The translations under genes and the position numbers were made by a program. From IMG/VR virus record IMGVR_UViG_3300021256_002164, positions 1 to 64,000 of that record: a stretch of DNA of 64,000 bases; one strand, 5' to 3'. The notes beneath the pieces are model-generated. The model saw only the letters and a program-made list of their open reading frames with translations. It did no database searches and had not been told where the DNA came from. This stretch comes from a virus (lineage: Duplodnaviria > Heunggongvirae > Uroviricota > Caudoviricetes). Positions 5,127 through 57,935 of the stretch are shown here, in pieces (within the stretch, counting starts at the first letter, position 1; each line of letters starts with the position of its first letter).

Positions 5127-5612
5127 ATGAAAGCATTCAATACATATATACAAGAAAAATTTATTCTAAATAAGAATACAAAAGTTCAAACATATATAAA
5201 GGATTGCAGTCAAGGTGATATTGTATATTTATTAAAACTCCATATTGATAGTGGATATATGAAAGAAGATACAGGTAAAGTTATAGAAAATACATGTAAA
5301 ACTATCAATAATGTATCTGTAAAAGATTCTATTAAATGTATAGTACAAATAAGTAAATATAAAAAAATGCAATATATATTTACAAATGGTATAAACTTTG
5401 ATGATAAATCATATATTGCTGTTCAAGAATGGAATGATATATTATATATTATTTCAAGAAATGAAGACTATATAAAAATTATTAAAGATAATACTGATAA
5501 AATATGTAAAGAACTTTGGAAAATAAATGATAATTTATATAATAAGGATGCAGATCAAAAAGAAAAAGATTTAGCATGTTTAAATTATTTTAAAACAAAC
5601 TTTAAATTATAA
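5127..5612 (+). CDS. hypothetical protein; N-terminal motif shared with the DUF285-repeat paralogs at 24–27 kb
   Basis: N-terminus MKAFNTYIQEKFILNKNTK resembles MKNLNQYIQEKFEINKNTK of the three DUF285 genes, but the repeat body is absent. Confidence 0.45.
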   Translation: MKAFNTYIQEKFILNKNTKVQTYIKDCSQGDIVYLLKLHIDSGYMKEDTGKVIENTCKTINNVSVKDSIKCIVQISKYKKMQYIFTNGINFDDKSYIAVQEWNDILYIISRNEDYIKIIKDNTDKICKELWKINDNLYNKDADQKEKDLACLNYFKTNFKL

Positions 5613-5661: not shown

Positions 5662-5989
5662 GGGGCTATTTTGGATTTGATTGGATATGTGACTTTAAGA
5701 ATCATGCAGGAGTGTTGAATCCTTAAATTTGACAAAACAATAAATGACGATAATTTTGAATATCGTATGGCTGCCTAACCTTTAGAAGGTTGATAAATAT
5801 CTTTAGGGCATATGCCGGCGCAGTGAGAACCTTTATTAAGGTCGTAGCAACAGAAGCCTCACAAACTACTTCAAACCATAATAATGTTAATCAGGTGAAA
5901 CATAAGTGAACTACATATATTTATAAAAGCATGTAATAAGTTCTTTTAGAAGTGTATTTAAGACGTGGGTTCGAGTCCCACTAGCTCCA
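5662..5989 (+). ncRNA. ssrA: tmRNA (SsrA)
   Basis: 5' end GGGGCTATTTTGGATTTGATTGG resembles the canonical GGGGCUGAUUCUGGAUUCGAC. 3' tRNA-like domain has T-arm GTGGG-TTCGAGT-CCCAC. Acceptor strand TAGCTCC pairs with 5' GGGGCTA, followed by discriminator A. Internal tag ORF …GAC GAT AAT TTT GAA TAT CGT ATG GCT GCC TAA (…DDNFEYRMAA*) ends at 5778. A terminator hairpin follows at 6010..6038. Confidence 0.7.
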
Positions 5990-6009
5990 CAAAATAATTA
6001 AATAATATA

Positions 6010-17565: not shown

Positions 17566-17570
17566 TAATT

Positions 17571-19762: not shown

Positions 19763-21709
19763 ATGAGCAACAAAGTTTTTGGTATCGATTTGGGTACCGG
19801 TAATTCATGTGTAGCTGTTATTGAAAATGGAAAGGCTACAGTTATTGCAAATGCTGAAGGTAATCGTACAACTCCTTCAGTAGTTTTTATTAAGGGTGAT
19901 GAACGTAAAGTTGGAGGTTCAGCTAAACGTGGTATGATTATGAACCCTAAGAATACAGTATCTTTCATTAAGCGTTTTATGGGTGCTGAATGGCAAGATG
20001 CAGATGTACAAAAGATGTTGACTATGGTAACTTATGAAGTAGTTAACAAAAATAATAAGCCGTATATTAAGATTGATGGTAAAGAATATTCTGCTGAGGA
20101 AATCTCTTCATATATTCTTGCTGACCTCGCAAAGGTTGCATCAGAATATTATGGTGAAGATGTAAAGAAGGTTGTTATTACTGTTCCTGCATGGTTCAAT
20201 GATGTTCAACGTAAGGCAACACAACTTGCTGGCGAACTTGCTGGACTTGAAGTTCTCCGTATTATCAATGAGCCTACCGCAGCTATTCTTGCAGCTGGTA
20301 TGGATAAAGAAGATAAGGAACGTCTTGTACTTGTAAATGACCTTGGTTGTGGTACTGAAGATGTATCTATTTGCGAAGTTTCACAAGGAATCGTTGAAGT
20401 TCTTGCATCTGATGGTGATGTATTCCTTGGCGGTCAAAACTATGATAATGAAATTGTAAATTGGTTGGCCGATGAATTTATGAAGGACCATGCTGGTGTT
20501 GATTTACGAAAGGATCCTATGGCATATGCACGTTTGGTTGAAGCTGCAGAAAAAGCAAAATGTGAATTGTCAACCGCAACACAAGCTGAAATCAATCTTC
20601 CTTATATTACTGTTATTGATAGTGTTCCTCAAATGTTGGTAACCACATTGACTCGTGCTAAATTTGAATCACTTACAAAGCAATATACAGATAAGGTAAT
20701 TGAAATTGCAAAACGTGCTCTTGAAAAGGCAGGTAAGACTTCTGCAGATATTACAGATATTCTTCTTGTTGGTGGTTCTTCACGTATGCCACAAGTACAA
20801 GAAGCACTTAAGAATGCATTTGGTGATAAACTTAATAAGCAATCTAATTTTGATGAAGCAGTTGCACTTGGTGCAGCAACTCAAGCTAAAGCAATTGCAA
20901 ATCCTGAAGAAGGTGATACATTGCTTCTTGATGTAACTCCTATTTCACTTGGTATTGAAGTTAATGGCAATATGTTTGGTAAGCTTGTAGATGCTAATAC
21001 AACTATTCCATGTAAGAAATCACAAATCTTTACAACAGCGGTAGATAATCAACCTGCAGTATCAATCGTAGTTCTTCAAGGTGAACGTCCTATGAGTAAG
21101 GATAATAAGCAAATTGGTATATTCAACCTTGATGGTATTGCTCCTGCCCCTCGTGGAATTCCTCAAATTGAAGTAACATTTGATATTGATGCTAATGGTA
21201 CTTTGACAGTAACTGCTGTTGATAAGGGTACTAATAAGGAACAGCATATTACTATTTCAGATTCTAATACTCTATCACAAGATGAAATTGATAGAATTAA
21301 GAAGGAAGCTGAAGAACATAAAGCTGAAGATGATAAGAAGAAAGCTGAGTTTGAAAAGAAGAATGAAGCTGAAGGATATATCTATTCAGTTGAAAAATCT
21401 TTGAATGATGAACAATTTAAAGATAAGTTTACTGAAGATGAAAAGAAGCAACTTGAAGACCTTGTAAAGGAAGCTAAGGAAGCAATCGATTCTAAAGATG
21501 ATGAAAAGATGTTTTCTAAGAAAGAAGAACTTGAAAAGGTATATGCTCCTATCATTACACGTATCTATCAAGAATCAATGCCTAAGGACCAACAAGGTAA
21601 TCCCCAAGTAGATCCTAATATGTTCAAAAATATGTTTGGTAGTGGTAATTTTGCTACAGGTGCAGATTTTGATCCATCAAAGTTTACACAAGCAAAACCG
21701 AATAATTAA
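19763..21709 (+). CDS. dnaK: Hsp70/DnaK-family chaperone (divergent)
   Basis: IDLGTGNS (cf. IDLGTTNS), [10 protein letters not shown] (cf. DLGGGTFDVS), VGGSSRMP (cf. VGGSTRIP), [14 protein letters not shown], charged C-terminal lid. GC content higher than flanks. Confidence 0.85.
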
Positions 21710-21771
21710 TATATAAAACTCTCAATGGGATTCTCATTTGAGAGTCCCTATATAAATATATTCAAAAATAA

Positions 21772-22215
21772 TTGGAGGTAATTATTATGACAAACGCTTT
21801 AGATTTTTTCAATTTTGGTAAATCGTCTATTTTCGACAATTGGTTCGACAATTTTGGTATGATTCCAACAAACTTTACCAATTCCCCAAAGGTTAATGTA
21901 AAGGAAACTGATAAAGCTTATGAAATAGAAATTGCCAATCCTGGTTTCTCTAAAGATGAAACAAAAATTGAGGTTAAGAATGGTATTATTACTGTTTCAA
22001 TGACTTCTGAAAGTAAAGAAGGTGAAGGAACAGAAGATAAGTATCATGTTAAACAATGGAGTAAATCATCTTATGAGGAATCTTGGAATCTTCCAGAAAA
22101 TGTAATTGATGACCAAATCTCAGCAAAGAATGTTGATGGGGTTCTTACAATTACATTACCTAAACGAGAGGAAGATACTAAGAAAGAAGAACCAAGGACC
22201 ATTACTATTGAATGA
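21772..22215 (+). CDS. small heat-shock protein (Hsp20/α-crystallin family)
   Basis: α-Crystallin domain ending …AKNVDGVLTITLPK. A GGAGGT ribosome-binding site precedes the ATG. Confidence 0.8.
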   Translation: MEVIIMTNALDFFNFGKSSIFDNWFDNFGMIPTNFTNSPKVNVKETDKAYEIEIANPGFSKDETKIEVKNGIITVSMTSESKEGEGTEDKYHVKQWSKSSYEESWNLPENVIDDQISAKNVDGVLTITLPKREEDTKKEEPRTITIE

Positions 22216-22218
22216 TAT

Positions 22219-22262
22219 TTATTTTGGGTGGGACTTAAAAATCTCACCCAAATTTTTCTATT
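22219..22262 (+). terminator. Rho-independent terminator after the sHsp gene
   Basis: tttgggtg…cacccaaa hairpin followed by a TTTTTCTATTTT run. Confidence 0.6.
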
Positions 22263-22290
22263 TTATTATATTAAATATATTTGAAGTATT

Positions 22291-22926
22291 ATGACAGAAT
22301 TAAGCTTAATTGCACAAAATTATTTAACAGATAAAGGTTGTACATATTTTAATTCTCATTGTTATACTGAAATTTATAATTCTTATTTTCAAAAACTTAA
22401 GAATAAAAATAGAAAAGTATATATTTTAGAAATTGGAGTACAAGCAGGATATGATTTATTAATGATGAATGATTATTTTGAAGGCAATTGTGAAATATAT
22501 GGTTTTGATATTAATATAAATACTTTAGAAGTTGAATTACCTGATAATATTCATATATTTGAATTAAATGCTGCAAGTATACCAGAGTTAAATAAATTTT
22601 ATTCAAACTTAATACATTGGTCAGTAAATAAAATGCCTCAATTTGATATTATTATTGATGACGGTTCCCATGAGTCACAAGATATATTAACATCTTTATA
22701 TTTTTTCTATCTTATGTTATCTTATGATGGTATATATATTATAGAAGATTTACATGCAGAATCAGCAAAAGAAGCATTAAATTATTTAACATTTAATGAG
22801 TCAAATAATATTAATATGGATGATGTAACAAAAAATATACAAAGTAAAACTATACATTATATTTGTAATTCCTATTGTATAGACTATGATAGTTCTATAT
22901 GTGCAGTTTTAACATTTAAAAAATAA
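22291..22926 (+). CDS. class I SAM-dependent methyltransferase
   Basis: Motif I-like VYILEIGVQAG and motif IV-like IIIDDGSH (TylF/FkbM-like O-MTase architecture). Confidence 0.55.
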   Translation: MTELSLIAQNYLTDKGCTYFNSHCYTEIYNSYFQKLKNKNRKVYILEIGVQAGYDLLMMNDYFEGNCEIYGFDININTLEVELPDNIHIFELNAASIPELNKFYSNLIHWSVNKMPQFDIIIDDGSHESQDILTSLYFFYLMLSYDGIYIIEDLHAESAKEALNYLTFNESNNINMDDVTKNIQSKTIHYICNSYCIDYDSSICAVLTFKK

Positions 22927-22929
22927 GTT

Positions 22930-24018
22930 ATGGCAAATAATAAAGATTTATACGAAATATTAGGTTTATCACGTAATGCATCTGATAATGATATTAAGAA
23001 AGCATATAAGAAGCTTGCTTTAAAATATCATCCTGATCGTCAAGGTGGAAAATCAGATAAAGAAAAGAAAGAAGCTGAAGAAAAATTTAAGGAAGTATCA
23101 TGGGCTTATGATATATTAAGCAATCCTGAAAAGAAACAGCGATATGATCAGTTTGGTATTACTGATGACCAGCAACAAATGAGTGGCGGATTTGATCCTT
23201 CAGAAATATTCAAACATTTTATGGGAGGATTTGATAGTATGTTTGATGATGACGATTCTCCTTTTGGAACATTTTTTAATAGAAGAAGTTCTCGTCAACC
23301 CAGAGGACCTCAGCCAGGACAGTCAATAAGAATGCAAATTCCAGTTAGTATAGAAGAAATCTGTAATGGTGTTCATAGAGATATTGAATATAATATACAA
23401 GCAAAATGCTCAAGTTGTCATGGAACTGGTGGTGATGGAGTTGAAACTTGTCAATATTGTCATGGAACTGGTATGATTACAGAAACTCAACGAATGGGAT
23501 TTAGTATTATTCAAAATTCTCATCCATGTCATTATTGTGGAGGAACTGGTAAAACTATTAAATATAAATGTTCAAAATGTAATGGTACTGGATTTGAAAC
23601 TAAAACAGTTAAAGTACATGTTGATATTAATCCTGGATTTGAAAATGGATATCAACAAATGTTTAATGGAAAGGGATATGAATCTAAAGATGGTGGGCAA
23701 AATGGTGATTTACTATTAGATTTTATTTATCAATATGATACTTCTAAATATTCAATTCAAGGAAATAATATATATGAAATAATTGAAATTCCATATTATG
23801 ATTGTATACTTGGTTGTAAAAATAAAGAAGTAACATTACCAAATAATGATAAAATAAAAATCAATATTCCAGAATATTCAAAAGATAATACATTAGTTCA
23901 AACAAATAAGAGATTTGGAAGAATGGGATATATATATGTTATAAAAGTAAAAATGCCAACATATATAAGAGATAAAGAAAAAGAACTATTAGAGAAAATT
24001 AAAAAGGAGAACCATTAA
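22930..24018 (+). CDS. dnaJ: DnaJ (Hsp40) co-chaperone
   Basis: J-domain DLYEILGLSRNASDNDIKKAYKKLALKYHPDRQ; four CxxCxGxG zinc-finger repeats (CSSCHGTG, CQYCHGTG, CHYCGGTG, CSKCNGTG); C-terminal β domains. Confidence 0.85.
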   Translation: MANNKDLYEILGLSRNASDNDIKKAYKKLALKYHPDRQGGKSDKEKKEAEEKFKEVSWAYDILSNPEKKQRYDQFGITDDQQQMSGGFDPSEIFKHFMGGFDSMFDDDDSPFGTFFNRRSSRQPRGPQPGQSIRMQIPVSIEEICNGVHRDIEYNIQAKCSSCHGTGGDGVETCQYCHGTGMITETQRMGFSIIQNSHPCHYCGGTGKTIKYKCSKCNGTGFETKTVKVHVDINPGFENGYQQMFNGKGYESKDGGQNGDLLLDFIYQYDTSKYSIQGNNIYEIIEIPYYDCILGCKNKEVTLPNNDKIKINIPEYSKDNTLVQTNKRFGRMGYIYVIKVKMPTYIRDKEKELLEKIKKENH

Positions 24019-24043
24019 GATTCTCCTTTATTTTTTTAATCAA
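23998..24043. terminator. Bidirectional terminator hairpin
   Basis: aggagaa…tctcct hairpin followed by TTTATTTTTTT, between convergent dnaJ and the first DUF285 gene. Confidence 0.6.
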
Positions 24044-25196
24044 CAATACCTCCACCATAAAACTCATCAAATGTTTTACCTCTCCAGAGCATTTTTACTG
24101 GGTCAATAAAAAATGTTCCATACTTATAATCATTTCCTTTTAAAATACATGGATATTTTACTGATAAATCTCCAGTAGTTTTATCTACTTCTTTATAATA
24201 TTTTTTAAGTAGACTCATTTCATCAGTTGTAAGTGCACCACCTTTATCATTATTTAATTTATTATTTAATGCTATTAATTTAGATTTATCTGATGTAGGA
24301 ATATTTTTTATTCTATTTCTTGCTTCTTTAGATATTTCTCCAAAATACCATACAGGCGGATTTTTTTCTAATGGTGAACCAGTAAATATATTTTTCATAT
24401 TTGTAACACGGTTTACATTCCAATTATCAAGATTTCCGTTAAACTTAGAATTGTAAAACATATAAGACATTTCAGTAACTCTACTTACATTCCATTTTGA
24501 TATATTTCCTTTAAATTTTTTATTACTACTAAACATTGAGCTTATATTTGTAACACGACTTACATCCCAATTTGATATATCACCATTAAGTCCACTAAAT
24601 TTACAATTATAAAACATTTCATGAATATCTGTAACATGACTTACATCCCATTTTGATAAATCTCCGTCATAAACAGATTGTGTAAACATAGAGCGCATAT
24701 TTGTAACATGGCTTACGTCCCAATTTGATATGTCACCATTTTTTCCTGTAAATGCACTTCCAAAAAACATTAATTCAGTACTTTCTATACTACTTAATTT
24801 CCATTTTGATAAATCTCCGTCATATAATGAATCAAAGAACATACGAGTTACATCTTTAACATTTGATACATCCCAATTTCCTAAATCACCGTTTTCACCA
24901 GTATATTTACTATCACAAAACATTCTTGACATATCTTCAACATTGCTTACATCCCATTTTGATATATCACCATTAAATTTTCTTAAATATAAATGTTTAC
25001 CATTAAATAAGCTAGACATATCTGTTATCTGACTAACATCAATATCATTTAAATTTGCATTAAGACCTCTTTCAGTAATAAGAGTTTTAAGTAATTTATC
25101 TAATTCTTTTCTTGTTTTCGGAAAATATTTATATTTAGTTACAGTATCATTATTTAATTCAAATTTTTCTTGTATATATTGATTTAAATTTTTCAT
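24036..25196 (-). CDS. DUF285-type repeat protein (Mycoplasma-type 'WDVSNVT.M..MF' repeats), full length
   Basis: ≥9 tandem ~24-aa repeats (GDISNWDVS.VT.M..MF); conserved N-terminus MKNLNQYIQEKFE; extended C-terminal domain. Confidence 0.7.
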   Translation of the reverse strand: MKNLNQYIQEKFELNNDTVTKYKYFPKTRKELDKLLKTLITERGLNANLNDIDVSQITDMSSLFNGKHLYLRKFNGDISKWDVSNVEDMSRMFCDSKYTGENGDLGNWDVSNVKDVTRMFFDSLYDGDLSKWKLSSIESTELMFFGSAFTGKNGDISNWDVSHVTNMRSMFTQSVYDGDLSKWDVSHVTDIHEMFYNCKFSGLNGDISNWDVSRVTNISSMFSSNKKFKGNISKWNVSRVTEMSYMFYNSKFNGNLDNWNVNRVTNMKNIFTGSPLEKNPPVWYFGEISKEARNRIKNIPTSDKSKLIALNNKLNNDKGGALTTDEMSLLKKYYKEVDKTTGDLSVKYPCILKGNDYKYGTFFIDPVKMLWRGKTFDEFYGGGIVD

Positions 25197-25271: not shown

Positions 25272-26114
25272 TCAAAAATACCATATTGGAGGATTTTTTT
25301 CTAATGATGAACCAACAAACATATTTTTCTTATATTTTACTTTCTCTACATTCCAATTTTCTAATCCTTTACCTGTAAATAATGAACATCCATAAAACAT
25401 ACAAAGCATATCTGTAACTTTAGATACATTCCATTTGCTTAAATCACAATTAAATTTTTTGCAATTACCAAACATATTACACATAGTTTCAACATTAGAA
25501 ACATCCCAATTACTTAAATCACAATTCAAATTTGTACAATCTTTAAATGTAGATTCCATAGTTTCAACATTAGATACTTCCCAATTTTCTAATCCTTTAC
25601 CTGTAAATAATGAACATCCTTCAAATATACCACTCATATCTTTAACTTTAGATACTTTCCAATTTTCTAATCCTTTACCGGTAAATGATGAACAATGATA
25701 AAACATATGCCACATATCTTCAATATTAGATACATCCCAATTACTTAAATCACTATTAAAATTTTTACAACCACCAAACATATGTCTTATATCTTTAACA
25801 TTACTAATATCCCATTTATTTAAATCACAATTAAAATATGTACAATTAGTAAACATATTTCTCATAGTTGTAACATTAGATACATCCCATAATGATATAT
25901 CAATATTATGTGGATCTAACTCTTGAAACAATGATTCCATATCTGTTATATTACTAACATCTATATCATTTAAATCAATATCCTTATCTTTAGCTAATCG
26001 TTCTTCTAATATTTTTCGAAGCTCCTCTGTTGTCTTAGGAGAATATTTATAAGTTCTTTTTGTATTCTTATTTATTTCAAATTTTTCTTGTATATATTGA
26101 TTTAAATTTTTCAT
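25272..26114 (-). CDS. DUF285-type repeat protein, paralog 2 (C-terminally truncated by an in-frame TGA)
   Basis: Same N-terminus and repeats. Ends …PPIWYF*, whereas paralog 1 reads …PPVWYFGEISKEARNRI. Sequence after the TGA still encodes EISKSARNRI. Confidence 0.65.
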   Translation of the reverse strand: MKNLNQYIQEKFEINKNTKRTYKYSPKTTEELRKILEERLAKDKDIDLNDIDVSNITDMESLFQELDPHNIDISLWDVSNVTTMRNMFTNCTYFNCDLNKWDISNVKDIRHMFGGCKNFNSDLSNWDVSNIEDMWHMFYHCSSFTGKGLENWKVSKVKDMSGIFEGCSLFTGKGLENWEVSNVETMESTFKDCTNLNCDLSNWDVSNVETMCNMFGNCKKFNCDLSKWNVSKVTDMLCMFYGCSLFTGKGLENWNVEKVKYKKNMFVGSSLEKNPPIWYF

Positions 26115-26164: not shown

Positions 26165-26854
26165 TTAATTTTTATACCAAGCAGGAATATGTTTTAATGA
26201 TGAGCAGTTGACAAACATTTGAGCTGGGAATTTTGCTAGTTTAGACACATCCCATTTACTTAAATCACAATTAAAACTTTTACAATCATAGAACATATAG
26301 CCCATATATTCAACTTTAGACACTTTCCATTTACTCAAATCAGAATTAAATTGTTGACAGCCATGAAACATAGCCTCCGTATTTACACACGAAGATAAAT
26401 CCCAATGGCTTAAATCTGCATTAAATTCTTCACAATCATAGAACAAGTAACTCATATATTTAACGTTAGATACATCCCAATCGCTTAAATCAGAATTAAA
26501 TATATCACATCTGTTAAACATACCATTCATATCTGTAACATTAGAAACGTTCCATTCACTCAAATCAGAATTAAAATTCATACAATTGGAAAACATATAT
26601 TCCATATTTTCAACATTAGAAACATCCCATTGCGATATATCTATATTATGAGGATCCAAACCTTTAAATAACTCATTCATATATGTTATTTTAGATACAT
26701 CAATATCATTCAAATTGGCATTTTTATCTTTCTTTAGCCGTTGTTCTATTATTTCTCGTAATTCTTCTGTTGTCTTAGGAGAATATTTATAAGTTCTTTT
26801 TGTATTCTTATTTATTTCAAATTTTTCTTGTATATATTGATTTAAATTTTTCAT
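26165..26854 (-). CDS. DUF285-type repeat protein, paralog 3
   Basis: First ~40 codons and the upstream region are near-identical to paralog 2 at the nucleotide level; same repeat family. Confidence 0.65.
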   Translation of the reverse strand: MKNLNQYIQEKFEINKNTKRTYKYSPKTTEELREIIEQRLKKDKNANLNDIDVSKITYMNELFKGLDPHNIDISQWDVSNVENMEYMFSNCMNFNSDLSEWNVSNVTDMNGMFNRCDIFNSDLSDWDVSNVKYMSYLFYDCEEFNADLSHWDLSSCVNTEAMFHGCQQFNSDLSKWKVSKVEYMGYMFYDCKSFNCDLSKWDVSKLAKFPAQMFVNCSSLKHIPAWYKN

Positions 26855-26997: not shown

Positions 26998-27327
26998 TTA
27001 TTTATTATATTTATTCTTATTAGATTTATTTGCAATTAATTGTTTAACTATTTCTTTTAGTTGATATATATAATCTAATTCAAGTTTATGCTTAAGTTCA
27101 ATATCATCTAATAAAAAATTAATCATAGCTTTATATGTTTCTTTAAATATAGAAGTCTTTTCAATATAATCTTCAATATTATTTACATTATGGTCATTAA
27201 TACAATTAACAACAATATTAATAAATTCTTGTTGTTCATCTTCTTTATTAGTAAACCATGTATCTAAAAGCCATAATAAATTATCTGAATCTAATGACTC
27301 TAATATATATTGAGATAATTTTTTCAT
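26998..27327 (-). CDS. small helical partner protein of the adjacent nucleotidyltransferase (putative toxin–antitoxin-like cognate)
   Basis: 109 aa; start overlaps the upstream gene's stop (ATGA). No clear HEPN Rx4-6H motif seen. Confidence 0.4.
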   Translation of the reverse strand: MKKLSQYILESLDSDNLLWLLDTWFTNKEDEQQEFINIVVNCINDHNVNNIEDYIEKTSIFKETYKAMINFLLDDIELKHKLELDYIYQLKEIVKQLIANKSNKNKYNK

Positions 27328-27671
27328 TTTACTAATTCAGGCTTAATATCTATATAAATTTTTTGATAAGTTAACTGATCAATATATTCATCTTTATGTA
27401 AAATATTATATAAGTTTTCTTTTGGAATATTTCCTTTATAATATAATACAATATCTAAATCTGAATCTTTATGTGGGTTTTCATTAATACGAGAACCACA
27501 AAGTTCTAATTCTACTATTTCAATATTATTTAAATCTTGCTTATATATAATATCTTCTATTTGATATTGCGTATAATCTATAATATCTTCTACAGTAGTT
27601 TGACCCATCCCATATACATGATGGTTATTTAATGAAGATTCATATATATTATCAAGTATATCAATATCCAT
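27324..27671 (-). CDS. minimal nucleotidyltransferase (MNT; Pol-β superfamily)
   Basis: LCGSRINENPHKDSDLDIVL matches the hG[GS]x9-13Dh[DE]h NTase motif; 115 aa, as in MNT antitoxins. Confidence 0.6.
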   Translation of the reverse strand: MDIDILDNIYESSLNNHHVYGMGQTTVEDIIDYTQYQIEDIIYKQDLNNIEIVELELCGSRINENPHKDSDLDIVLYYKGNIPKENLYNILHKDEYIDQLTYQKIYIDIKPELVK

Positions 27672-27700: not shown

Positions 27701-27731
27701 AAAAAATCCTAACCAATTATGATTAGGATTT
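27701..27731 (-). terminator. Rho-independent terminator downstream of the collagen-like fibre gene
   Basis: aatcctaa…ttaggatt hairpin; T-run on the minus strand. Confidence 0.6.
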
Positions 27732-27751
27732 TAATAGTATAAATTTATTTA

Positions 27752-30700
27752 TTACTTATTTTCTAATATTTGTATTCTATCTTCTAATTCTTTAATCTTT
27801 TTAAATACAGCGCCAACAATTTTACTTAATGCTGAATTATAGTTTACAGAATATAAATTAGTATCAAGATTCAAATCTACTGCTTCAGGAATTATATCTT
27901 GTAAATATTGTGCAATAAATCCATTAGTATTCCTATTATTACCTTTCCAATCAAAATTATATACTATATCATTTTGATTAAATAATTTATTAATAAATTC
28001 TTCTGAAATAGGATTAATATTTTCTTTTAATGATATATCTGAATTTGCAAATAATTCTCCACTTTTAGCATATGCAGTAGAAACAAATATTTGGTTTTTA
28101 TAACCTGCAGAATTACCACTAAAACCTGCAATATATACATTATTTGATCCAGGACTTGCTGCATAAATTTTCAATGCACCAGTATTTCCACCTACACCAG
28201 TTGAACCAATATATACATCACCATTTGGTCCTTGTGCACCTGTTACAGCATTTCCTGCAATAGGTCCTTTTGCACCAGTAAAACCTTGAATAGCAGTACC
28301 TGCTGTACCAGTTCTACCTTGAACACCTCGGTTGTCATCACCTTTAGGACCTTGCGCTCCTGTTGTACCTTGAGTTCCTGGTTTAGTACCTTGTGAACCA
28401 GTTACACCTTGTATAGTTGCACCAGGTTTACCTTGACGTCCTATGTCACCTTGATTGTTTGAACCTTGAGGACCTTGCGCTCCTGTTTTACCTTGAGTTC
28501 CTGGTTTAGTACCTTGTGAACCAGTTACACCTTGTATAGTTGCACCAGGTTTACCTTGACGTCCTATGTCACCTTGATTGTTTGAACCTTGAGGACCTTG
28601 TGCACCAGTTTTACCTTGAGCTGATGGTTTAGTACCTTGTAAACCAGTTACACCTTGTGGACTTATACCTAATGCACCATCGCGTCCTTTATATCCTTGG
28701 TTATAAGAACCTGTAGGACCTTGAGCACCAGTTTTACCTTGAGCTGATGGTTTAGTACCTTGTGAACCAGTTACACCTTGTGGGCTTATACCTAATGCAC
28801 CATCACGTCCAGTATATCCTTGGTTATAAGAACCAGTAGGACCTTGTGCACCAGTTTTACCTTGAGCTGATGGTTTAGTACCAACAGTACCAGTTGTACC
28901 TTGTATACTTAATCCATTCGCGCCATTACGTCCAGTATATCCTTGGTTATAAGAACCTGTAGGACCTTGAGCACCTGTTGTACCTTGAGCTGATGGTTTA
29001 GTACCAGTAGTACCAGTTGCACCTTGTATACTTAAACCATTTGCACCTTTACGTCCAGCATATCCTTGGTTATTCGAACCTGTAGGACCTTGAGCACCTG
29101 TTGTACCTTGAGCTGATGGTTTAGTACCAACAGCACCAGTTATACCTTGTGGACTCAAACCATTCGCACCTTTGCGTCCATCATATCCTTGGTTATAAGA
29201 ACCTGTGGGACCTTGTGCACCTGTTGTACCTTGAGTTGATGGTTTAGTGCCAATACCACCAGTTACACCTTGTGGACTCAAACCTTTTGCACCAGTTCTA
29301 CCTTGTATACCAGGCCAATCACTACCAGTTACACCTTGTGCACCAGTTGAACCTTGAATACCTCTTGGCCCAATATCACCTTGTCTACCTTGAGTATTAT
29401 TTATAATACCTTGTGTTCCTTGACGTCCTTGAATACCTGTATATCCAGTAGGACCTTGTTTACCTTGAACACCAGTTCTACCTTGAACGCCTTGTTTACC
29501 ATCAATACCTTGTCTACCTTGAGTTGTATTTTCTATACCTTGTGGACCTTCTCGACCTTGAGCACCAGTAAGACCTCTAGAGCCTTGTGCTCCTTGTGTA
29601 CCCGTTGGACCTTGAATACCTCGTTTAGTACCATCAATACCTTGTCTACCTTGAGTTGTATTTTCTATACCTTGTGGACCTTCTCGACCTTGAGCACCAG
29701 TAAGACCTCTAGAGCCTTGTGCTCCTTGTGTACCCGTTGGACCTTGAATACCCATTGTACTAGATTTAATACCTGTTCTACCTTGCGTTGTATTTTCTAC
29801 ACCTTGAGGTCCTTCTCGTCCTTGTGTACCAGTATATCCAGTAGGACCTTGAATACCTTGCGCACCAGTTCTACCTTGAATACCTTGCTTAGACGCAGTA
29901 AGACCAGTTCTGCCCTGTATTATATTTTCTACACCTTGAGCACCTTCTCGTCCTTGTGTGCCAGTATATCCAACAGGTCCTTGGGCACCTTGTGTACCAG
30001 TAGGACCTTGAATACCTCTTGTACTAGATTTAATACCTGTTCTACCTTGCGTTGTATTTTCTACACCTTGTGGACCTTCTCGTCCTTGTGTACCAGTAAA
30101 ACCAATAGGTCCTTGAATACCTTGAGCTCCTGTTGTACCTTGAATACCTTGCTTAGAAGATGTAAGACCAGTTCTTCCTTGTGTTGTATTTTCTATACCT
30201 TGTGGACCTTCTCGACCTTGTATACCAGTAAAACCAATTGGACCTTGAATACCTTGAGCTCCTGTTCTTCCTTGAATACCTTGCTTAGAAGATGTAAGAC
30301 CAGTTCTACCTTGTATTATATTTTCTACACCTTGCGCACCTTCACGTCCTTGTGTACCAGTATATCCAGTAGGACCTTGAATACCTTGAGCTCCTGTTCT
30401 TCCTTGAATACCTTGCTTAGAAGATGTAAGACCAGTTCTACCTTGCGTTGTATTTTCTATACCTTGTGGTCCTTCTCGTCCTTGTGTACCGGTATATCCA
30501 GTAGGACCTTGAATACCTTGAGCTCCTGTTCTTCCTTGAATACCTTGCTTAGAAGATGTAAGACCAGTTCTACCTTGAATTGTATTTTCTACACCTTGAG
30601 GGCCTTCACGTCCTTGTATACCAGTATATCCAATAGGACCTTGAATACCTTGAGCTCCTGTTCTTCCTTGAATACCTTGCTTAGAAGATGTAAGACCAGT

Positions 30701-31726
30701 TCTACCTTGAATTGTATTTTCTACGCCTTGCGGGCCTTCTCGACCTTGTGTACCAGTAAAACCAATTGGACCTTGAATACCTTGAGCACCCGTTGTACCT
30801 TGAATACCTTGCTTAGAAGATGTAAGGCCAGTTCTGCCTTGAGTTGTATTTTCTACACCTTGCGCACCTTCTCGTCCCTGTGTACCAGTAAAACCAATTG
30901 GACCTTGAATACCTTGAGCTCCTGTTGTACCTTGAATACCTTGCTTAGAAGATGTAAGACCAGTTCTTCCTTGTGTTGTATTTTCTACACCTTGCGGACC
31001 TTCTCGTCCTTGTGTACCAGTAAAACCAATTGGACCTTGAATACCTTGTGCACCTGTTGTACCTTGAATACCTTGTTTAGAAGATGTAAGACCAGTTCTT
31101 CCTTGTGTTGTATTTTCTACACCTTGTGCTCCTTCTCGTCCTTGCGTACCAGTATATCCTGTGGGGCCTTGAATACCTTGAGCACCAGTTCTACCTTGAA
31201 TACCTTGTTTTGATGATGTAAGACCAGTTCTGCCCTGAGTTGTATTTTCTACACCCTGCGCTCCTTCTCGTCCTTGTATACCAGTATGACCTGTTGTACC
31301 TTGTGCTCCTTGTGCTCCAGTTACACCTTGCATACCAATCATACCAATTATACCAGTTCTACCTTGAGCGCCCATAATTCCTCGTACACCAGTTAATCCA
31401 TAATTTCCTCTTAACGGATATCTAGGAACCCATTGAGAACCATTATATGAATATAAATATTCATTATTCTCTTCAACATTTATGAAAATATCTCCTTCTT
31501 GAATATCTTCTGTTGGTTGAGTAGTACCCCAATAACATTTTGATCCTCTCTGTAATGTTGTTTGAATTTTATCAAGTATGTCTTTTTTATTAAAAAATTC
31601 TATACCTTGAGAATAAATAATTCTATTGTCATCAGCAGTTTCAAATAAAATATGATAACTATTTTTATTTTCTGCTACAGCATTTCTAGAAAGTCCTAAT
31701 CTAATATTTTGCTTAATAATACCCAT
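27752..31726 (-). CDS. collagen-like tail fibre protein with C-terminal intramolecular-chaperone (peptidase S74) domain
   Basis: ~100-aa N-terminal head, then ~1070 aa of G-X-Y triplets in ~44-aa tandem units (QGREGAQGVENTTQGRTGLTSSKQGIQGRTGAQGIQGPTGYTGT). C-terminus SDISLKENINPISEEF…GFIAQYLQDIIPEAV…LEDRIQILENK matches the S74 auto-chaperone consensus. Confidence 0.8.
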   Translation of the reverse strand: MGIIKQNIRLGLSRNAVAENKNSYHILFETADDNRIIYSQGIEFFNKKDILDKIQTTLQRGSKCYWGTTQPTEDIQEGDIFINVEENNEYLYSYNGSQWVPRYPLRGNYGLTGVRGIMGAQGRTGIIGMIGMQGVTGAQGAQGTTGHTGIQGREGAQGVENTTQGRTGLTSSKQGIQGRTGAQGIQGPTGYTGTQGREGAQGVENTTQGRTGLTSSKQGIQGTTGAQGIQGPIGFTGTQGREGPQGVENTTQGRTGLTSSKQGIQGTTGAQGIQGPIGFTGTQGREGAQGVENTTQGRTGLTSSKQGIQGTTGAQGIQGPIGFTGTQGREGPQGVENTIQGRTGLTSSKQGIQGRTGAQGIQGPIGYTGIQGREGPQGVENTIQGRTGLTSSKQGIQGRTGAQGIQGPTGYTGTQGREGPQGIENTTQGRTGLTSSKQGIQGRTGAQGIQGPTGYTGTQGREGAQGVENIIQGRTGLTSSKQGIQGRTGAQGIQGPIGFTGIQGREGPQGIENTTQGRTGLTSSKQGIQGTTGAQGIQGPIGFTGTQGREGPQGVENTTQGRTGIKSSTRGIQGPTGTQGAQGPVGYTGTQGREGAQGVENIIQGRTGLTASKQGIQGRTGAQGIQGPTGYTGTQGREGPQGVENTTQGRTGIKSSTMGIQGPTGTQGAQGSRGLTGAQGREGPQGIENTTQGRQGIDGTKRGIQGPTGTQGAQGSRGLTGAQGREGPQGIENTTQGRQGIDGKQGVQGRTGVQGKQGPTGYTGIQGRQGTQGIINNTQGRQGDIGPRGIQGSTGAQGVTGSDWPGIQGRTGAKGLSPQGVTGGIGTKPSTQGTTGAQGPTGSYNQGYDGRKGANGLSPQGITGAVGTKPSAQGTTGAQGPTGSNNQGYAGRKGANGLSIQGATGTTGTKPSAQGTTGAQGPTGSYNQGYTGRNGANGLSIQGTTGTVGTKPSAQGKTGAQGPTGSYNQGYTGRDGALGISPQGVTGSQGTKPSAQGKTGAQGPTGSYNQGYKGRDGALGISPQGVTGLQGTKPSAQGKTGAQGPQGSNNQGDIGRQGKPGATIQGVTGSQGTKPGTQGKTGAQGPQGSNNQGDIGRQGKPGATIQGVTGSQGTKPGTQGTTGAQGPKGDDNRGVQGRTGTAGTAIQGFTGAKGPIAGNAVTGAQGPNGDVYIGSTGVGGNTGALKIYAASPGSNNVYIAGFSGNSAGYKNQIFVSTAYAKSGELFANSDISLKENINPISEEFINKLFNQNDIVYNFDWKGNNRNTNGFIAQYLQDIIPEAVDLNLDTNLYSVNYNSALSKIVGAVFKKIKELEDRIQILENK

Positions 31727-32704: not shown

Positions 32705-33868
32705 CTATATTTTAATATGATATGTTTCATAAACTGATTTGCTATTTCTTTCTTGGTCATTTAAACATTCTTGCATTAATGCATATACTTCTTGTAATAG
32801 TTTAAATGTTACTTTATCTTTTTGCAAATAGTTATTAACTTTTGTACAATAATAAGTAATAGATGAATTACTTACATTATATGTTGCTGCGAGTTCTTTA
32901 TTCTTAAGTTTCTCTTTTCCATTAATACCATAGAATCCACACCAGATATTAAATATTTGTTCACCAAATTCTTTCTTAATTCTAGCATAAATTTCTCCCC
33001 AAACTTTATCTAAATCTGCTTTATCTAAAGAAGAGTCAGAATATTCTTGTGAGTCAATAAAGTCAAATACTGTCTTATTACCATCTTCACTATTATTAAT
33101 ACCAACTTTTAAATCGCCAGATACTGTATTAGATTTGGTGTTTTGACCATTTTTCTTTCTCTCTTTATTTAATTGAGATTTAGCAATACGAACTGTACGA
33201 GATTCATGAGCAATTGCATCTAGAATTGTAAATCTAATAATATATGCTGCCCATTGAAGAAAAGATTGAGATGATATATTTTTAGCATCAATATTATCAT
33301 CTTTAATATTTGACTTTTTACCATATGTATTCATTGCATATGTTAATCCATCAAATGCTACGCTCAATAAGTCTTCATAATTTAAATTGCTTTTTCCATA
33401 ATATTGTTTACAAATTTTATGTACAAGTGGAGTATATTTAATAGCAATATTATTTCTAGATTTATCATCTTTAAAATCCATAACAATTAAATCAAGATGA
33501 CAAGTTTTATTGATAATACTATTAAATTGTTCTTTTGTTTGGAATACTGGGATTTCTAAAACTCTATTTTCTTTAACAACTTTTTCAAGTTTATTATAAA
33601 GTTCTGCAAAATCAGACTTATCTGGATAACCTGCATTAAAAAATCCAGCAAGTACGTTTTCTTCATTTGCTGTATCTAAATCAGTAAGATACGAATTATT
33701 ATTAACAATTAAATAATCAATAATATCTTTTGATTCAGGCATTATATATTTATCTGTAATAGCTAAATATTTTTTCAATTGTTCGACTGTTAAATAATTC
33801 AAAGAATTAGGTTGTACTTTAATTGTCAAAGTATTCTTTTTAGGATTTGTTAAAGAAATTTTTTTCAT
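32705..33868 (-). CDS. sigma-70 family RNA polymerase sigma factor
   Basis: Region-2-like YEDLLSVAFDGLTYAMNTY and FLQWAAYIIRFTILDAIAHESRTVRI (cf. TYATWWIRQAI…SRTIRIP); region-4 HTH-like KELAATYNVSNSSITYYCTKVNNYL. Confidence 0.6.
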   Translation of the reverse strand: MKKISLTNPKKNTLTIKVQPNSLNYLTVEQLKKYLAITDKYIMPESKDIIDYLIVNNNSYLTDLDTANEENVLAGFFNAGYPDKSDFAELYNKLEKVVKENRVLEIPVFQTKEQFNSIINKTCHLDLIVMDFKDDKSRNNIAIKYTPLVHKICKQYYGKSNLNYEDLLSVAFDGLTYAMNTYGKKSNIKDDNIDAKNISSQSFLQWAAYIIRFTILDAIAHESRTVRIAKSQLNKERKKNGQNTKSNTVSGDLKVGINNSEDGNKTVFDFIDSQEYSDSSLDKADLDKVWGEIYARIKKEFGEQIFNIWCGFYGINGKEKLKNKELAATYNVSNSSITYYCTKVNNYLQKDKVTFKLLQEVYALMQECLNDQERNSKSVYETYHIKI

Positions 33869-45464: not shown

Positions 45465-47264
45465 TTAGATAATACCAAATTCTGAATGTACAGCAAATGT
45501 GAAGTACATAGATTCGGGGAAGAATCCAAGTTCAGCAAGTGCGAAGCGGCTGTTAAGAAGCATCTTAGGAGCCATTGTACCTTCAGCTGTGATTTGTACT
45601 TGGTCAGCAAGAATGTAAGGTAAGAATACCAAACCAGGGCTGTTAGCATCACCTTTACGACCTACGCAAATACGTGTGTCTTCCCAATCCATATAAGGAT
45701 CAACATAAACCTTCAAGCCAGCAACAGTACCACCCATGTAAAGGTCTTTAGAACCATCTTGTGCCATACCGTTAACCATAGGAGCTACAACATAACCAGA
45801 AACATCTTGGAGAGCAGCAGCAACTTGACCGTTAGTAACAATCCATGTAGGACGGCCACGACGACCAACATTTTGAATAACTGTAGCAGCAGCTAAGATA
45901 CGAGACATGATACGACGTTGACGAGTATGAAGATTTTCAGCACTTGTAAGTACTTCAGCATTTTCAATACCATCCCAAGTTTCAAGATGATCAACACCAT
46001 GGATATCTTTGAATTCTTTGATACCAAACTCTGAAAGAGCATGAGTAGCATTACCTTTACCCATCCAAAGGTTCAAATCAACATTTTGATAAGCTTTTTG
46101 TTGAGCTGCATTAGTAACACCAAGAGCAAAGATTCTTTCAAGGATACGTTGGTTAATGTGTTGAGTGATTTCATTTTGCATTTGTTCCATAATCTTACCA
46201 ACAGCATCAACACCATAAAGTGGAAGGTCTTGAAGTTGTTGACGAGTTACAGTACCAGTAACTTCATATGAACCCATTTGGATCCAACGTGAGAATAAAC
46301 GAAGACCGATTGTATTACCTGTACCAGTTTCGTTTTCAGCACGTGTCATTGTACGGTTAAAGTTCTTAGGATCAGAAGCTTTAACATTGAAGTTAGCAAA
46401 ACCATCAGCAAGGTCTACAGAAGTTTGAACGAAGTCAGCTTCAACTGTTTGAGCAGGAACATAATCAGCTTCACCTTCTGTACCTTGAGCAGCTTCTAAT
46501 GTAATTTCAGCACCACCAAGTGTTACTGTTGTAGCACTAGCAACAGCTTCACGAACAGAAGTGTCTTCATCACCACAATCTACAACTTCAACTAATGGGC
46601 AGCCATCCATACGACCCCATCCAATGAATAAACCATTAAGGTCACCAATAGTAACTGTATCGCCTTTCTTAGGTTTCTTAGTTGCATCAGCTTTAGCTTC
46701 TTTGATTTGTGCTAATGTAAGACCCTTAATCTTAACATAGATAGGTTTATTTTCATTACCTTCGCCTTTACCGTCAAATACAGTTTCATTTACACGGCCA
46801 AGTTTACCACCAGCATATGGGAAGTCCATATAAGAAAGCATATGCCAAGGACCTTTAGAAGGAATAACAGGAACAAGTTCTAAACCAATAGTAAGAAGAG
46901 CGATATTAAGAGCCATTGGAAGAGTACTCATAGGAATATCACCACTACCTACACTTTGTTGATAGAAGCTAGCTGTACCACCTACAGGAACTTGACCTTG
47001 GTCAAAACCAGGAGTATTAACTACACCAGGAGCATAAGGATTACCCATACCAGTTGTATTAAGAGGAGTAGCATAAATAGGACCTACAGCAGCAGGGTTA
47101 TTATTTAACACATTTCCTGCATTAACACCAAGTTGAGATTCATAGATTTCATGAACACTTGCGTATTGTGAAATCCAGTCTAATTTATCTTGATCATCAA
47201 CTTTAAAATTTTCAGTTAACATTTGACGCCACATATTTGCGCCATTTTGTTCAGTAATTAACAT
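45465..47264 (-). CDS. major capsid protein (T4 gp23-like, HK97 fold)
   Basis: PTWIVTNGQVAAALQDVSG ~ T4 GNFIIASRNVVNVLASVDTG; DLYMGGTVAGLKVYVDPYM ~ SVFAGVLGGKYRVYIDQYA. About 600 aa, as for gp23 precursors. A strong terminator follows. Confidence 0.8.
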   Translation of the reverse strand: MLITEQNGANMWRQMLTENFKVDDQDKLDWISQYASVHEIYESQLGVNAGNVLNNNPAAVGPIYATPLNTTGMGNPYAPGVVNTPGFDQGQVPVGGTASFYQQSVGSGDIPMSTLPMALNIALLTIGLELVPVIPSKGPWHMLSYMDFPYAGGKLGRVNETVFDGKGEGNENKPIYVKIKGLTLAQIKEAKADATKKPKKGDTVTIGDLNGLFIGWGRMDGCPLVEVVDCGDEDTSVREAVASATTVTLGGAEITLEAAQGTEGEADYVPAQTVEADFVQTSVDLADGFANFNVKASDPKNFNRTMTRAENETGTGNTIGLRLFSRWIQMGSYEVTGTVTRQQLQDLPLYGVDAVGKIMEQMQNEITQHINQRILERIFALGVTNAAQQKAYQNVDLNLWMGKGNATHALSEFGIKEFKDIHGVDHLETWDGIENAEVLTSAENLHTRQRRIMSRILAAATVIQNVGRRGRPTWIVTNGQVAAALQDVSGYVVAPMVNGMAQDGSKDLYMGGTVAGLKVYVDPYMDWEDTRICVGRKGDANSPGLVFLPYILADQVQITAEGTMAPKMLLNSRFALAELGFFPESMYFTFAVHSEFGII

Positions 47265-47366: not shown

Positions 47367-49124
47367 TTATTTTTGCTTACGTAAATACATCATTCTGTTT
47401 ATAATAGATTGATGATAATCATTTACTGGGCTATTTACTTGACTTTCTTTAACTGCAGTAGCAGTATCTTTCTTTGAAAAATCTACATTACTCCAGAATG
47501 ATTCAAGTACACCATCTTTTGTAAAATCATACATACGAGATGAACGAACAATTTCATCTTTACGTTCTTCTGAAAGCATTTCCCATGAAGGTTTAAATTC
47601 AGAAGGCATATTTTCTACAGCAAATACATTCTTATATTTACTTACTTCAACATTTTCTTTAACAATATTTTCTAAATCTTTATTTCCATTATCAGAAATA
47701 GTTTCAAGAAGAGTATCAATTTCTTCTAAGCGACCAGCTTTTTGTGATTCTAAAATATTATTAACTTTCTCATTAATAGTATTCATTTGTTCTTCAGCAA
47801 ATTCTTCAGTAATCCAAGAATCAACTACAGGAGCAAATTCTTCAGTAATCCAATTTTGAACTTCAGGTGAATATTCTTCTGTAATCCAATTTTGAACTTC
47901 AGGAGCAAATTCTTCACATATCCAACCTTGAACTTCAGGAGCAAATTCTTCACATACCCAATTTTGAACTTCAGGAGCAAATTCTTCAGTAATCCAACCT
48001 TGAACTTCAGGAGCAAATTCTTCGCATACCCAATTTTGAACTTCAGGAGCAAATTCTTCACATACCCAATTTTGAACTTCAGGAGCAAATTCTTCTGTAA
48101 TCCATTGTTGAACACCATTACTAATTAATTCAACAGCTTCATTAATTTTGTTTTCAATTGTAGAATTAATATCAGAATCATTAAGACGTTCAACTACAAT
48201 ATTATTTACATTATCCATAATTTGTGAATTGAAACTTTCTGCAAATTCATTAGTAATCCATTCTTGAATAGCATCATAATTAACATGAGGAACTTCTTCT
48301 AAAGATTCTTGAGCGATATGAAGTTGAGCTTCAAGAGAAGTAACTTTATCACTAAGCTTATCAATAGCTTCTTTTAAATCTTTCATATCAATTTTATCAG
48401 TATTATTTTTGTTATCTTTATTTTCTTTTTTATTATCATCATTATCTTTATCCTCTTCCTTTTTATCTTCCTCTTTTTTGTCTTCTTTCTTATCATCTTT
48501 TTTCTTATCGTCATCATCAGATAAAAGATCATCATCTAAAGAATCATCATCACCTTCGATAATTGCATACATAACATTACCATCATCTAAAGATTCATTA
48601 AGACATTCGAGAGTTTGATTTGATTTTAAAGATAATTTAGCTTGACTAAAACCTGGTGTACCAACCAAGTCATAAGTTTTAATAGTAGATAAAGTTACTC
48701 TACCTTCATTTGTAATAGTACCAGCGCCACGAGAAGAAATATAAAGTGGTAATCCACCTTCAACAATTGCTTGTGCAATTTGTCCTTTAGGTGTATTTAA
48801 TAAAACAATTGTACCAGTAATTGTTCCATCTTCATTCATTTGAATACTTTCAATTTTGTGAGATACATTTTCTAGATTAATATTCATAGAATTAGGATGT
48901 TCTAATTCACCAGGACAACCACTTTCTTTAATAACCTGTTGTAATGATTCAACCATTTGTTTATAGTTTTCTCTATCATAAACACGGTTATTCTGATTTT
49001 TTATACCACATACTCCAAATATTCCTTCAAGACGCATTAAACCATCACTTGTACTTTCTTTAATTGTTAGATCTGAAACTTTTCCCAATGTTTCATAAAC
49101 TAAGCAATGTTTTTTATTTGTCAT
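47367..49124 (-). CDS. prohead protease (T4 gp21-like) fused to a repeat-rich scaffold/core domain
   Basis: N-terminus GLMRLEGIFGVCGIKNQNNRVYDRENY ~ gp21 GLYIEGIF…VNRNKRLYPKRI. Then a poly-D/K/E linker and 9× tandem 12-aa repeats WITEEFAPEVQN (36-nt period, 47825..48130). Confidence 0.7.
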   Translation of the reverse strand: MTNKKHCLVYETLGKVSDLTIKESTSDGLMRLEGIFGVCGIKNQNNRVYDRENYKQMVESLQQVIKESGCPGELEHPNSMNINLENVSHKIESIQMNEDGTITGTIVLLNTPKGQIAQAIVEGGLPLYISSRGAGTITNEGRVTLSTIKTYDLVGTPGFSQAKLSLKSNQTLECLNESLDDGNVMYAIIEGDDDSLDDDLLSDDDDKKKDDKKEDKKEEDKKEEDKDNDDNKKENKDNKNNTDKIDMKDLKEAIDKLSDKVTSLEAQLHIAQESLEEVPHVNYDAIQEWITNEFAESFNSQIMDNVNNIVVERLNDSDINSTIENKINEAVELISNGVQQWITEEFAPEVQNWVCEEFAPEVQNWVCEEFAPEVQGWITEEFAPEVQNWVCEEFAPEVQGWICEEFAPEVQNWITEEYSPEVQNWITEEFAPVVDSWITEEFAEEQMNTINEKVNNILESQKAGRLEEIDTLLETISDNGNKDLENIVKENVEVSKYKNVFAVENMPSEFKPSWEMLSEERKDEIVRSSRMYDFTKDGVLESFWSNVDFSKKDTATAVKESQVNSPVNDYHQSIINRMMYLRKQK

Positions 49125-57850: not shown

Positions 57851-57879
57851 AATTTTTTATATACAAATTTAATGATTTT

Positions 57880-57898: not shown

Positions 57899-57935
57899 TA
57901 GGCCATTTTAAAAATGACCTATTCTTAAAAGTTTT
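57895..57935 (-). terminator. Rho-independent terminator downstream of the 1772-aa gene
   Basis: Near-palindrome aataggccattttt/aaaaatgacctatt; T-rich on the minus strand. Confidence 0.5.

Follow-up and report, generated by a model that had tools for sequence, protein, structure and literature searches.

A leader-bearing minimal nucleotidyltransferase and a helical domain protein encoded side by side in an AT-rich rumen jumbo phage

In the toxin–antitoxin (TA) pair HepT/MntA, the nucleotidyltransferase (NTase) MntA is defined by a GSX10DXD motif, in which substitution of GS abolishes the modification of HepT, and it carries a C-terminal alpha4 helix that is inserted into HepT and needed for neutralisation (PMC7641770). 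The first description of NTases of the PF18765 type came from polyvalent proteins transferred together with DNA, mainly those of conjugative elements of Firmicutes, where they are fused to ArdC-N and are predicted to NMPylate (transfer a nucleoside monophosphate, NMP, to) proteins of the recipient cell (Iyer et al. 2017, PMC5512222). In phage T4, a capsid-targeting sequence (CTS), which reads MKTYQEFIAE in the internal proteins IPII and IPIII (PMC8442874), lets internal proteins and Alt dock on the prohead core, after which gp21 removes the tag (PMC7411985, PMC5694885). The internal proteins of T-even phages form a diverse anti-defence set with only the CTS in common (PMC3012670). Here, we describe a locus in a 64,000-nucleotide stretch of viral DNA (IMG/VR record IMGVR_UViG_3300021256_002164, positions 1 to 64,000; hereafter the window), in which the genes of an NTase of 115 amino acids (aa) and of a 109-aa helical protein overlap. 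A preliminary description had taken this arrangement for a TA-like module of the HEPN/MNT type.

On balance, we favour with modest confidence the reading that these are two independent accessory genes, each tagged with an N-terminal leader, whose products are possibly packaged in the phage head and ejected into the host. The pair itself is ordinary. The main lead is a CTS-like leader found on dozens of unrelated proteins, and it rests on a short motif and its context.

Two protein families

The 115-aa protein is a minimal, MNT-like NTase of the Pol-beta superfamily with an MntA-type motif. Residues 57–76 (LCGSRINENPHKDSDLDIVL) hold an exact GSX10DXD, in which G59 and S60 are followed by ten residues and by D71-L-D73. 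The protein matches NTP_transf_2 (PF01909) in Pfam at 24.3 bits (cut-off 21, E-value 4.3e-5) and scores 26.3 bits with Polbeta (PF18765), just below the cut-off of 26.9. Among 11 close homologues G59, S60, D71, D73 and D108 are invariant; across 120 family members the motif is intact in 110 and D108 is 97% conserved. The AlphaFold2 model (predicted local distance difference test, pLDDT, 79.5) has the minimal helix-strand-loop-strand-helix-strand core, and it contains what marks a minimal Pol-beta NTase, namely a helix-strand-GS loop-strand core with three acidic catalytic residues. The earlier assignment, made from a GS-x(n)-DxD signature, is thus upheld by the exact motif, by the Pfam score and by the invariance of the catalytic residues in close homologues.

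This NTase family comprises at least 196 clusters, nearly all of them solo proteins of 100–145 aa, and most members match PF18765. The window protein adds one more example to a kind already known, the solo minimal Pol-beta NTases of mobile elements. It differs from the PF18765 NTases of polyvalent proteins in being the product of a stand-alone gene of rumen jumbo phages, with a leader resembling the T4 CTS in place of a fusion. A sub-clade of the family lacks the catalytic residues, with GS changed to DS or ES, DLD to DLN and the third D to N (L051/L052 5001–5345, L029 273–623 and P0177–P0186). These degenerate copies still occupy the syntenic position in phages of 397–465 kb, which suggests either a non-catalytic role or ongoing decay. 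A conserved C-terminal tail, NPIRDEETGSLxxYIKKDKxYKK, is found in 69 of the 120 family members and is missing from the window copy. A similar basic motif, NKSxKNKY, occurs at the C-terminus of the family of the 109-aa protein, and the resemblance may reflect a shared signal or AT-rich composition. An identity as a CD-NTase of the CBASS defence system was rejected on size and on the absence of family matches.

The 109-aa protein is acidic (isoelectric point 5.0), and its AlphaFold2 model (mean pLDDT 81.7) consists of six helices. The preliminary description had already called it helical and had noted that it lacks an obvious Rx4-6H HEPN motif; the motif is absent because the sequence contains no arginine at all, and it is not conserved in the family either. 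A structure check returned no structural match to the model. The profile search of this family, hereafter the partner family, found 127 clusters at 50% identity, so that it counts at least 127. Most of its members are solo proteins of about 105 aa, and many others carry the domain at the C-terminus of proteins of 350–600 aa. The domain is also found at the N-terminus of larger proteins, as in P0090, where it precedes DUF285 repeats, and in P0101 it stands behind a Pnkp-like P-loop kinase. Conserved residues are E10, N16, W19, D22, W24-F25, F35, F71, D85-Y86-x-Y88 and N100-K101. The family profile gave a marginal match to the C-terminal winged helix of RPA32 (RPA32C; E-value 0.03), which we treat as a lead only. 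The partner family is thus a large, promiscuous, all-helical domain family that is restricted to phages and has no known fold, and we infer that the 109-aa protein is a protein-interaction module.

Conservation of the pairing

The two open reading frames (ORFs) lie on the minus strand and share an ATGA stop/start overlap, exactly as previously described. Such overlaps are common in these phages: among 157 distinct same-strand neighbouring gene pairs in the related loci, 30 overlap by 4 nt and 65 overlap to some extent. The ATGA overlap is generic compact packing of co-transcribed gene arrays. Recoding of the stop codon, which would fuse the two ORFs, was rejected in view of the standard genetic code, the coding density of 92% and the different frames of the ORFs.

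Across related loci, the position of the NTase gene is conserved: it follows a tail-fibre gene and precedes a convergent DnaJ-Hsp20-Hsp70 cluster. Between NTase and DnaJ lies a variable slot, filled differently in each relative examined. In the window it holds the 109-aa gene and three DUF285 genes, and in L019-21 a partner homologue and a 106-aa gene. Another gene is inserted between the NTase and the partner homologue in L022 and L025, and in L018 the NTase is followed by two unrelated genes. In L017, L023/24 and L051/52 (L051/52 being the contigs of 397–465 kb) the NTase abuts DnaJ with nothing in between. More distant members of the NTase family stand in the orders DHH-NTase-NrdD and RecA-NTase-DUF4494, with no partner-family gene within 5 kb. 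Altogether, 6 of the 11 distinct contexts have no partner beside the NTase.

The pairing is not conserved from the side of the partner either. The metagenome scan for partner-family loci used a 12-sequence alignment, as the broad alignment of 74 sequences was too divergent for pattern design; a search of IMG/VR for related loci with the partner alignment gave no confirmed match. An NTase was present at 2 of the 25 metagenomic loci of the partner family and absent from the other 23. P0005, which is 56% identical to the 109-aa protein, stands first in another gene array, where up to 12.8 kb of sequence contain no NTase.

Part of the sequence evidence is what a type VII, HEPN/MNT-like TA pair would show. 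In such a pair the NTase would neutralise or regulate its partner by NMPylation, or the reverse, and the pair could be used in anti-defence or exclusion. The GSX10DXD motif is exact, MntA_antitoxin is the best NCBIfam match of the NTase, and an NTase gene upstream of a gene for a small helical protein with a 4-nt overlap is the usual layout. This overlapping adjacency is seen in three lineages (the window, L019-21 and L029), and the conserved tyrosines Y86 and Y88 of the partner could in principle accept AMP. However, the NCBIfam equivalog model for MntA (NF047752) scored only 18.7 bits against a cut-off of 60, in a match limited to residues 55–87 round the active site. Because the NTase model stops at the D108 strand, there is no C-terminal helix of the MntA type, and thus no counterpart of the alpha4 helix that MntA requires. 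The neighbouring protein does not pass for a HEPN fold either (PF01934, PF08780 or PF05168 with RX4HXY or Rx4-6H).

The distribution of the genes also speaks against a TA pair, since the NTase often stands alone and the partner family mostly occurs without it. A would-be toxin without its antitoxin, as at the P0005 loci, should not persist. In L029, the NTase that overlaps a partner homologue carries G59E and D108N and is probably inactive, so AMPylation of the partner cannot be a conserved mechanism. The generic nature of the overlap and the fact that PADLOC returned weak matches only add to this. In comparison with HepT/MntA (PMC7641770), we find an NTase that is phage-borne, usually solo and far below the MntA cut-off, with an N-terminal leader and without alpha4, beside a neighbour that is not HEPN and has no RX4HXY, in a pairing that is not conserved. 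The proposed HEPN/MNT membership therefore stands as far as PF01909 and GSX10DXD are concerned; it fails on the MntA equivalog, on the HEPN neighbour and on a co-inherited module. The TA-like two-gene module of the preliminary description finds no support, given the lack of conserved pairing in either direction, the insertions in L022 and L025, the generic overlap and the MntA score. We consider a TA function of this type very improbable, and we are highly confident that the two genes do not form a HEPN/MNT-type pair.

AbiEi contains a winged-helix domain, and the NTase toxins AbiEii and MenT are of about 250–300 aa and have extra motifs. The arrangement here recalls the type IV/VII TA systems AbiEi/AbiEii and MenA/MenT in that a Pol-beta NTase stands beside a small helical protein, and the marginal RPA32C match of the partner resembles a winged helix. 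An AbiE/MenT identity was rejected, as neither Pfam nor PADLOC gave an AbiE or DUF1814 match, the NTase has only 115 aa, and the two genes stand in the opposite order, with the NTase first, and are not conserved as a pair.

Alternatively, the two genes may form a lineage-specific, non-toxic pair, in which the 109-aa domain would serve as an adaptor, a regulator or a co-packaged partner, for instance by recruiting the NTase to its target or to the prohead core. Consistent with this, 9 of the contexts have the order tail-fibre-NTase-DnaJ, and in 5 of these no more than 1 kb separates the NTase and the partner. Fusions of the partner domain to other enzymes, for example the P-loop kinase, are what one would expect of an adaptor, and both proteins are acidic and bear the same type of leader. 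Yet the partner copies in these five contexts are more closely related to one another (56–72% identity) than to any others, and because of this the linkage is explained by one ancestral insertion into the variable slot, followed by loss. The insertions that separate the two genes in L022 and L025, the occurrence of NTases elsewhere without such a neighbour and the absence of any NTase-partner fusion among 131 partner-family proteins also count against a functional pair, which we therefore regard as unlikely. We conclude that the two genes are probably independently distributed accessory genes in a variable slot, not a two-component system.

A shared N-terminal leader

What the two proteins share is their N-terminus. 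The 109-aa protein begins with MKKLSQYILE, which fits the pattern ^MK.[LIFMV]..[YF][ILV].E, and the NTase begins with a variant of this leader, MDIDILDNIYE. In the window, the pattern occurs at the N-terminus of 5 of the 49 genes and has no internal match in 19,976 aa. The three DUF285 genes begin with MKNLNQYIQE, and ORF 5127–5612 begins with MKAFNTYIQE. In the related loci, the leader opens 65 of 235 distinct genes, with six internal matches in 46,035 aa; as these loci were fetched around family members, the fraction of 65/235 is biased upward, and the N-terminal specificity is unaffected. In 39 of the 65 leader-bearing genes, S, G or A follows the leader Glu.

The leader is found on proteins of very different kinds. 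Within the NTase family, 31 of the 120 members have the strict form MKx[LI]xx[YFI][ILV]xE (for example MKQISLYIKES) and 41 more have a variant, making 72 of 120 together. Unrelated leader-bearing neighbours include DUF285 repeat proteins, a P-loop kinase and membrane proteins. Other phages have arrays of small genes that run in one direction and all start with the leader, and the partner-family gene is usually the last of such an array. The leader region has a pLDDT below 50 in both AlphaFold2 models, and in P0101 the leader immediately precedes the P-loop strand, which starts at about residue 14. Both of these points suggest that the leader is an appendage outside the fold. Six fusion proteins (P0034, P0074, P0078, P0095, P0101 and P0102), besides having an N-terminal leader of their own, contain an internal leader-like stretch, SLxSYIxE[S/A]LD, directly before the C-terminal partner domain. 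It could represent a protease site within the protein or what is left of a gene fusion.

The closest known counterpart of the leader is the T4 CTS. The translation of the T4 IPII and IPIII genes confirmed MKTYQEFIAE, and the leader is class-identical to it at 6 of 10 positions: M1, K2, the hydrophobic residue 4, the aromatic residue 7, I8 and E10. In 20 kb of T4, the only annotated genes with the leader pattern are IPII and IPIII; one unannotated ORF in the tRNA region also has it. As in a CTS-type propeptide, which has 10–20 aa, a short conserved N-terminal stretch ending in Glu is common to otherwise unrelated proteins, and as in a CTS-type phage, a gp21-family protease and a gp23-family capsid protein are encoded. 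The T4 proteins IPI, IPII, IPIII and Alt likewise carry a 10-residue tag on unrelated proteins in variable loci (Mullaney & Black 1996; PMC3012670; PMC7411985; PMC8442874). The leader Glu is often followed by a small residue in the rumen phage genes, and in T4 the junction is E/A. As with Alt in T4, one of the tagged proteins here is an enzyme of a host-modifying type.

There are also differences. The tagged proteins here are acidic, whereas T4 IPII and IPIII are highly basic (PMC8442874). The tagged set is far larger than that of T4 and includes repeat proteins, kinases and membrane proteins. A further difference from the T4 internal proteins is that fusion proteins here retain the leader internally. 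In the capsid protein of the window, residues 36–43 read VHEIYE/SQ, and the IYE/S at 40–43 equals NTase residues 9–12 (within NIYESS); from its sequence, this is a candidate propeptide cleavage site.

By analogy with T4, the mechanism that we favour, if only tentatively, is that the decapeptide works as a capsid-targeting sequence and that the proteins bearing it are packaged, trimmed and ejected. The leader would dock the tagged proteins onto the prohead core, and the prohead protease would cut it off after the Glu. The mature proteins would then be ejected into the host with the DNA, where the NTase would act as a T4-Alt-like enzyme. It would use an NTP to add an NMP to a hydroxyl of its target, which would not be the product of the neighbouring gene. 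Judging from the known minimal NTases of TA systems and polyvalent proteins, this target would most likely be a protein, of the host, or else an RNA end.

Several observations weigh against our overall reading. In 5 of the 11 distinct NTase contexts, the partner gene lies next to the NTase or close by, which is above random placement, so that a lineage-specific link in function may exist. Ten members of the NTase family have lost catalytic residues, so catalysis is not always required. The leader is a short one, in a genome whose 25% GC makes K, N, I, Y and E frequent residues. It also forms the first helix of the partner domain (modelled in helix 4–11) and is retained internally in fusion proteins, so that it may be structural and not a removable tag. 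Finally, in the cultured relative PTm1, a Tenacibaculum phage, the 50 kb examined contained no gene with the leader.

The last two of these points equally favour a role of the leader other than capsid targeting. It could be recognised by chaperones (Hsp70/DnaJ), provide a context for translation initiation, mark a boundary of cassette recombination or be the first helix of unrelated domains. The NTase would then be an intracellular housekeeping enzyme, acting for example in RNA end repair like Pol-beta NTases of the RlaP type. Jumbo phages do deploy Pol-beta NTases for RNA repair (PMC7824862), some NTases of the family stand among RecA, topoisomerase, NrdD and DHH genes, and a chaperone cluster adjoins the locus. 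However, the position-specific Y7, I8 and E10 with the following small residue exceed what codon or initiation effects would produce, and the leader precedes otherwise complete domains, as in P0101. The low pLDDT of the leader in both models suggests a flexible appendage, and the class-identity to the T4 CTS is found in a phage with the matching protease family. We take such another role to be a serious possibility that falls short of being probable.

The phage, its other genes and what they imply

The element that carries both ORFs is a phage, as the preliminary description had stated. The window (about 25% GC, 92% coding, standard code) encodes a tail sheath, a tail tube, a gp23-type major capsid protein and a gp21-type (Peptidase_S77) prohead protease. 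Identical genes are also found on a 203-kb contig of a sheep rumen metagenome. The phage is a jumbo myophage of the rumen, rich in AT and with a head of the T4 type, and its host probably belongs to the Bacteroidota. In a tblastn search with the capsid protein, the nearest sequences were the uncultured phage record LR756500, Tenacibaculum phages PTm1/pT24, Sphingomonas phage PAU and Prevotella Lak phages. Among GenBank phages there was no nucleotide match to the 14 kb around the locus and no protein match for the 109-aa protein; the NTase had marginal matches only, in two human-gut contigs and in gp642 of Bacillus phage G. These searches turned up no cultured member of the clade. The coordinates of all features are listed in Table 1.

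Table 1. Features of the locus and of the surrounding window (positions in the window; sequence motifs as given).
Feature	Position	Strand	Remarks
115-aa solo minimal Pol-beta-superfamily NTase (PF01909/PF18765 type)	27324..27671	-	
NTase leader variant, residues 1–11	27639..27671	-	MDIDILDNIYES; low-confidence helix outside fold
GSX10DXD catalytic motif (G59–D73)	27453..27497	-	read from sequence
D108 codon	27348..27350	-	third catalytic carboxylate, last beta-strand (YIDI)
ATGA stop/start overlap of NTase and 109-aa ORFs	27324..27327	-	
109-aa acidic all-alpha protein, phage-specific domain family	26998..27327	-	signature ExLDxDNxxWxxDxWF ... F ... FxxF ... DYxY ... NKS
Leader of 109-aa protein, residues 1–10	27298..27327	-	fits leader pattern
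Three tandem DUF285/BspA-like repeat genes	26165-26854, 25272-26114, 24036-25196	-	downstream; each starts MKNLNQYIQEKF; variable slot
Unrelated 161-aa gene with leader	5127..5612	+	MKAFNTYIQEKF; no Pfam or NCBIfam match
Terminator-like hairpin and T-run	27703..27732	-	3' of collagen-like tail-fibre gene, ~30 nt upstream of NTase start
Collagen-repeat tail-fibre-like protein, 1324 aa	27752-31726	-	C-terminal Peptidase_S74 chaperone domain
Major capsid protein, gp23-type	45465..47264	-	Pfam Gp23 96.5 bits (cut-off 24.4)
Prohead protease, T4 gp21 type (Peptidase_S77), long C-terminal extension	47367..49124	-	directly upstream of capsid gene
Two giant ORFs (2873 aa, 1772 aa)	49229-63272	-	directly upstream of prohead protease and capsid genes; no Pfam match
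387-aa protein	32705-33868	-	sigma-70 region 2 26.2 bits (cut-off 24); PHROG RNA polymerase sigma factor match
Chaperone set: Hsp70 (709 bits), Hsp20, full DnaJ	19763-24018	+	
211-aa gene between Hsp20 and DnaJ	22291-22926		
Family B DNA polymerase (PolB), apparently interrupted	13989-18539	+	
tmRNA (transfer-messenger RNA) gene	5662-5992	+	Rfam RF00023 87.3 bits (gathering score 47)

The prohead protease matched PF03420 in Pfam at 43 bits (cut-off 27) and the head maturation protease family phrog_207 with an E-value of 2e-43, and its PTm1 counterpart is annotated as 'prohead core scaffolding protein and protease'. The two giant ORFs next to it may encode virion or ejection proteins.

The gene of the collagen-like fibre has a local GC content of 37–43% against a background of about 25%, and its repeat array varies in length among relatives (1397 aa in L052). 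A 619-aa ORF on the opposite strand (29354–31213) is a by-product of the collagen repeats. The hairpin that follows the fibre gene has a 13-bp stem, and two such sites occur in the region where 0.2 are expected. A putative dedicated promoter motif (TAAATATATATA) upstream of the NTase and a DUF285 gene had four matches against 0.87 expected; as 1 of 100 shuffles also reached four, it was set aside as too weak to use.

On the plus strand, the chaperone set is syntenic in relatives of 200–465 kb (L001, L051/52). The homologue in a relative of the gene between Hsp20 and DnaJ, a 214-aa gene in L020, matches Methyltransf_24 (PF13578). ARAGORN predicts DDNFEYRMAA* as the tag peptide of the tmRNA, whose gene directly follows the leader-bearing ORF 5127–5612. 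In the PolB region, ORF 13989–16328 combines a PolB segment with a C-terminal intein splicing domain and is followed by the overlapping or adjacent ORFs 16318–17565 (phrog_22677) and 17571–18539. This layout points to the insertion of an intein or a homing endonuclease, or else to a polymerase that is split. The 387-aa protein may be a phage-encoded sigma factor.

For the annotation of phage genomes, these results call for caution: a GSX10DXD NTase with an overlapping small ORF is insufficient for a HEPN/MNT call, above all in gene-dense phages. They also bring to light a helical domain family that had no name before, with at least 127 clusters and confined to AT-rich rumen phages, and, in the same phages, a large NTase family whose members are solo and minimal and in part catalytically dead.

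The leader may have wider consequences. We raise it as a possibility, and a fairly speculative one, that a T4-like targeting and processing signal has been kept in a distant clade of uncultivated rumen jumbo or huge phages (contigs of about 200–465 kb), where it would tag an unusually large and diverse set of ejected proteins. If this is true, the ejected set would include the NTase as an Alt-like NMP-transferase, DUF285/BspA-like proteins, a polynucleotide-kinase-like enzyme, membrane proteins and the WxxDxWF helical domain. The leader would then provide a simple sequence rule for the proteins injected by huge uncultivated phages, and the internal-protein paradigm of T4 would be extended well beyond the T-even phages.

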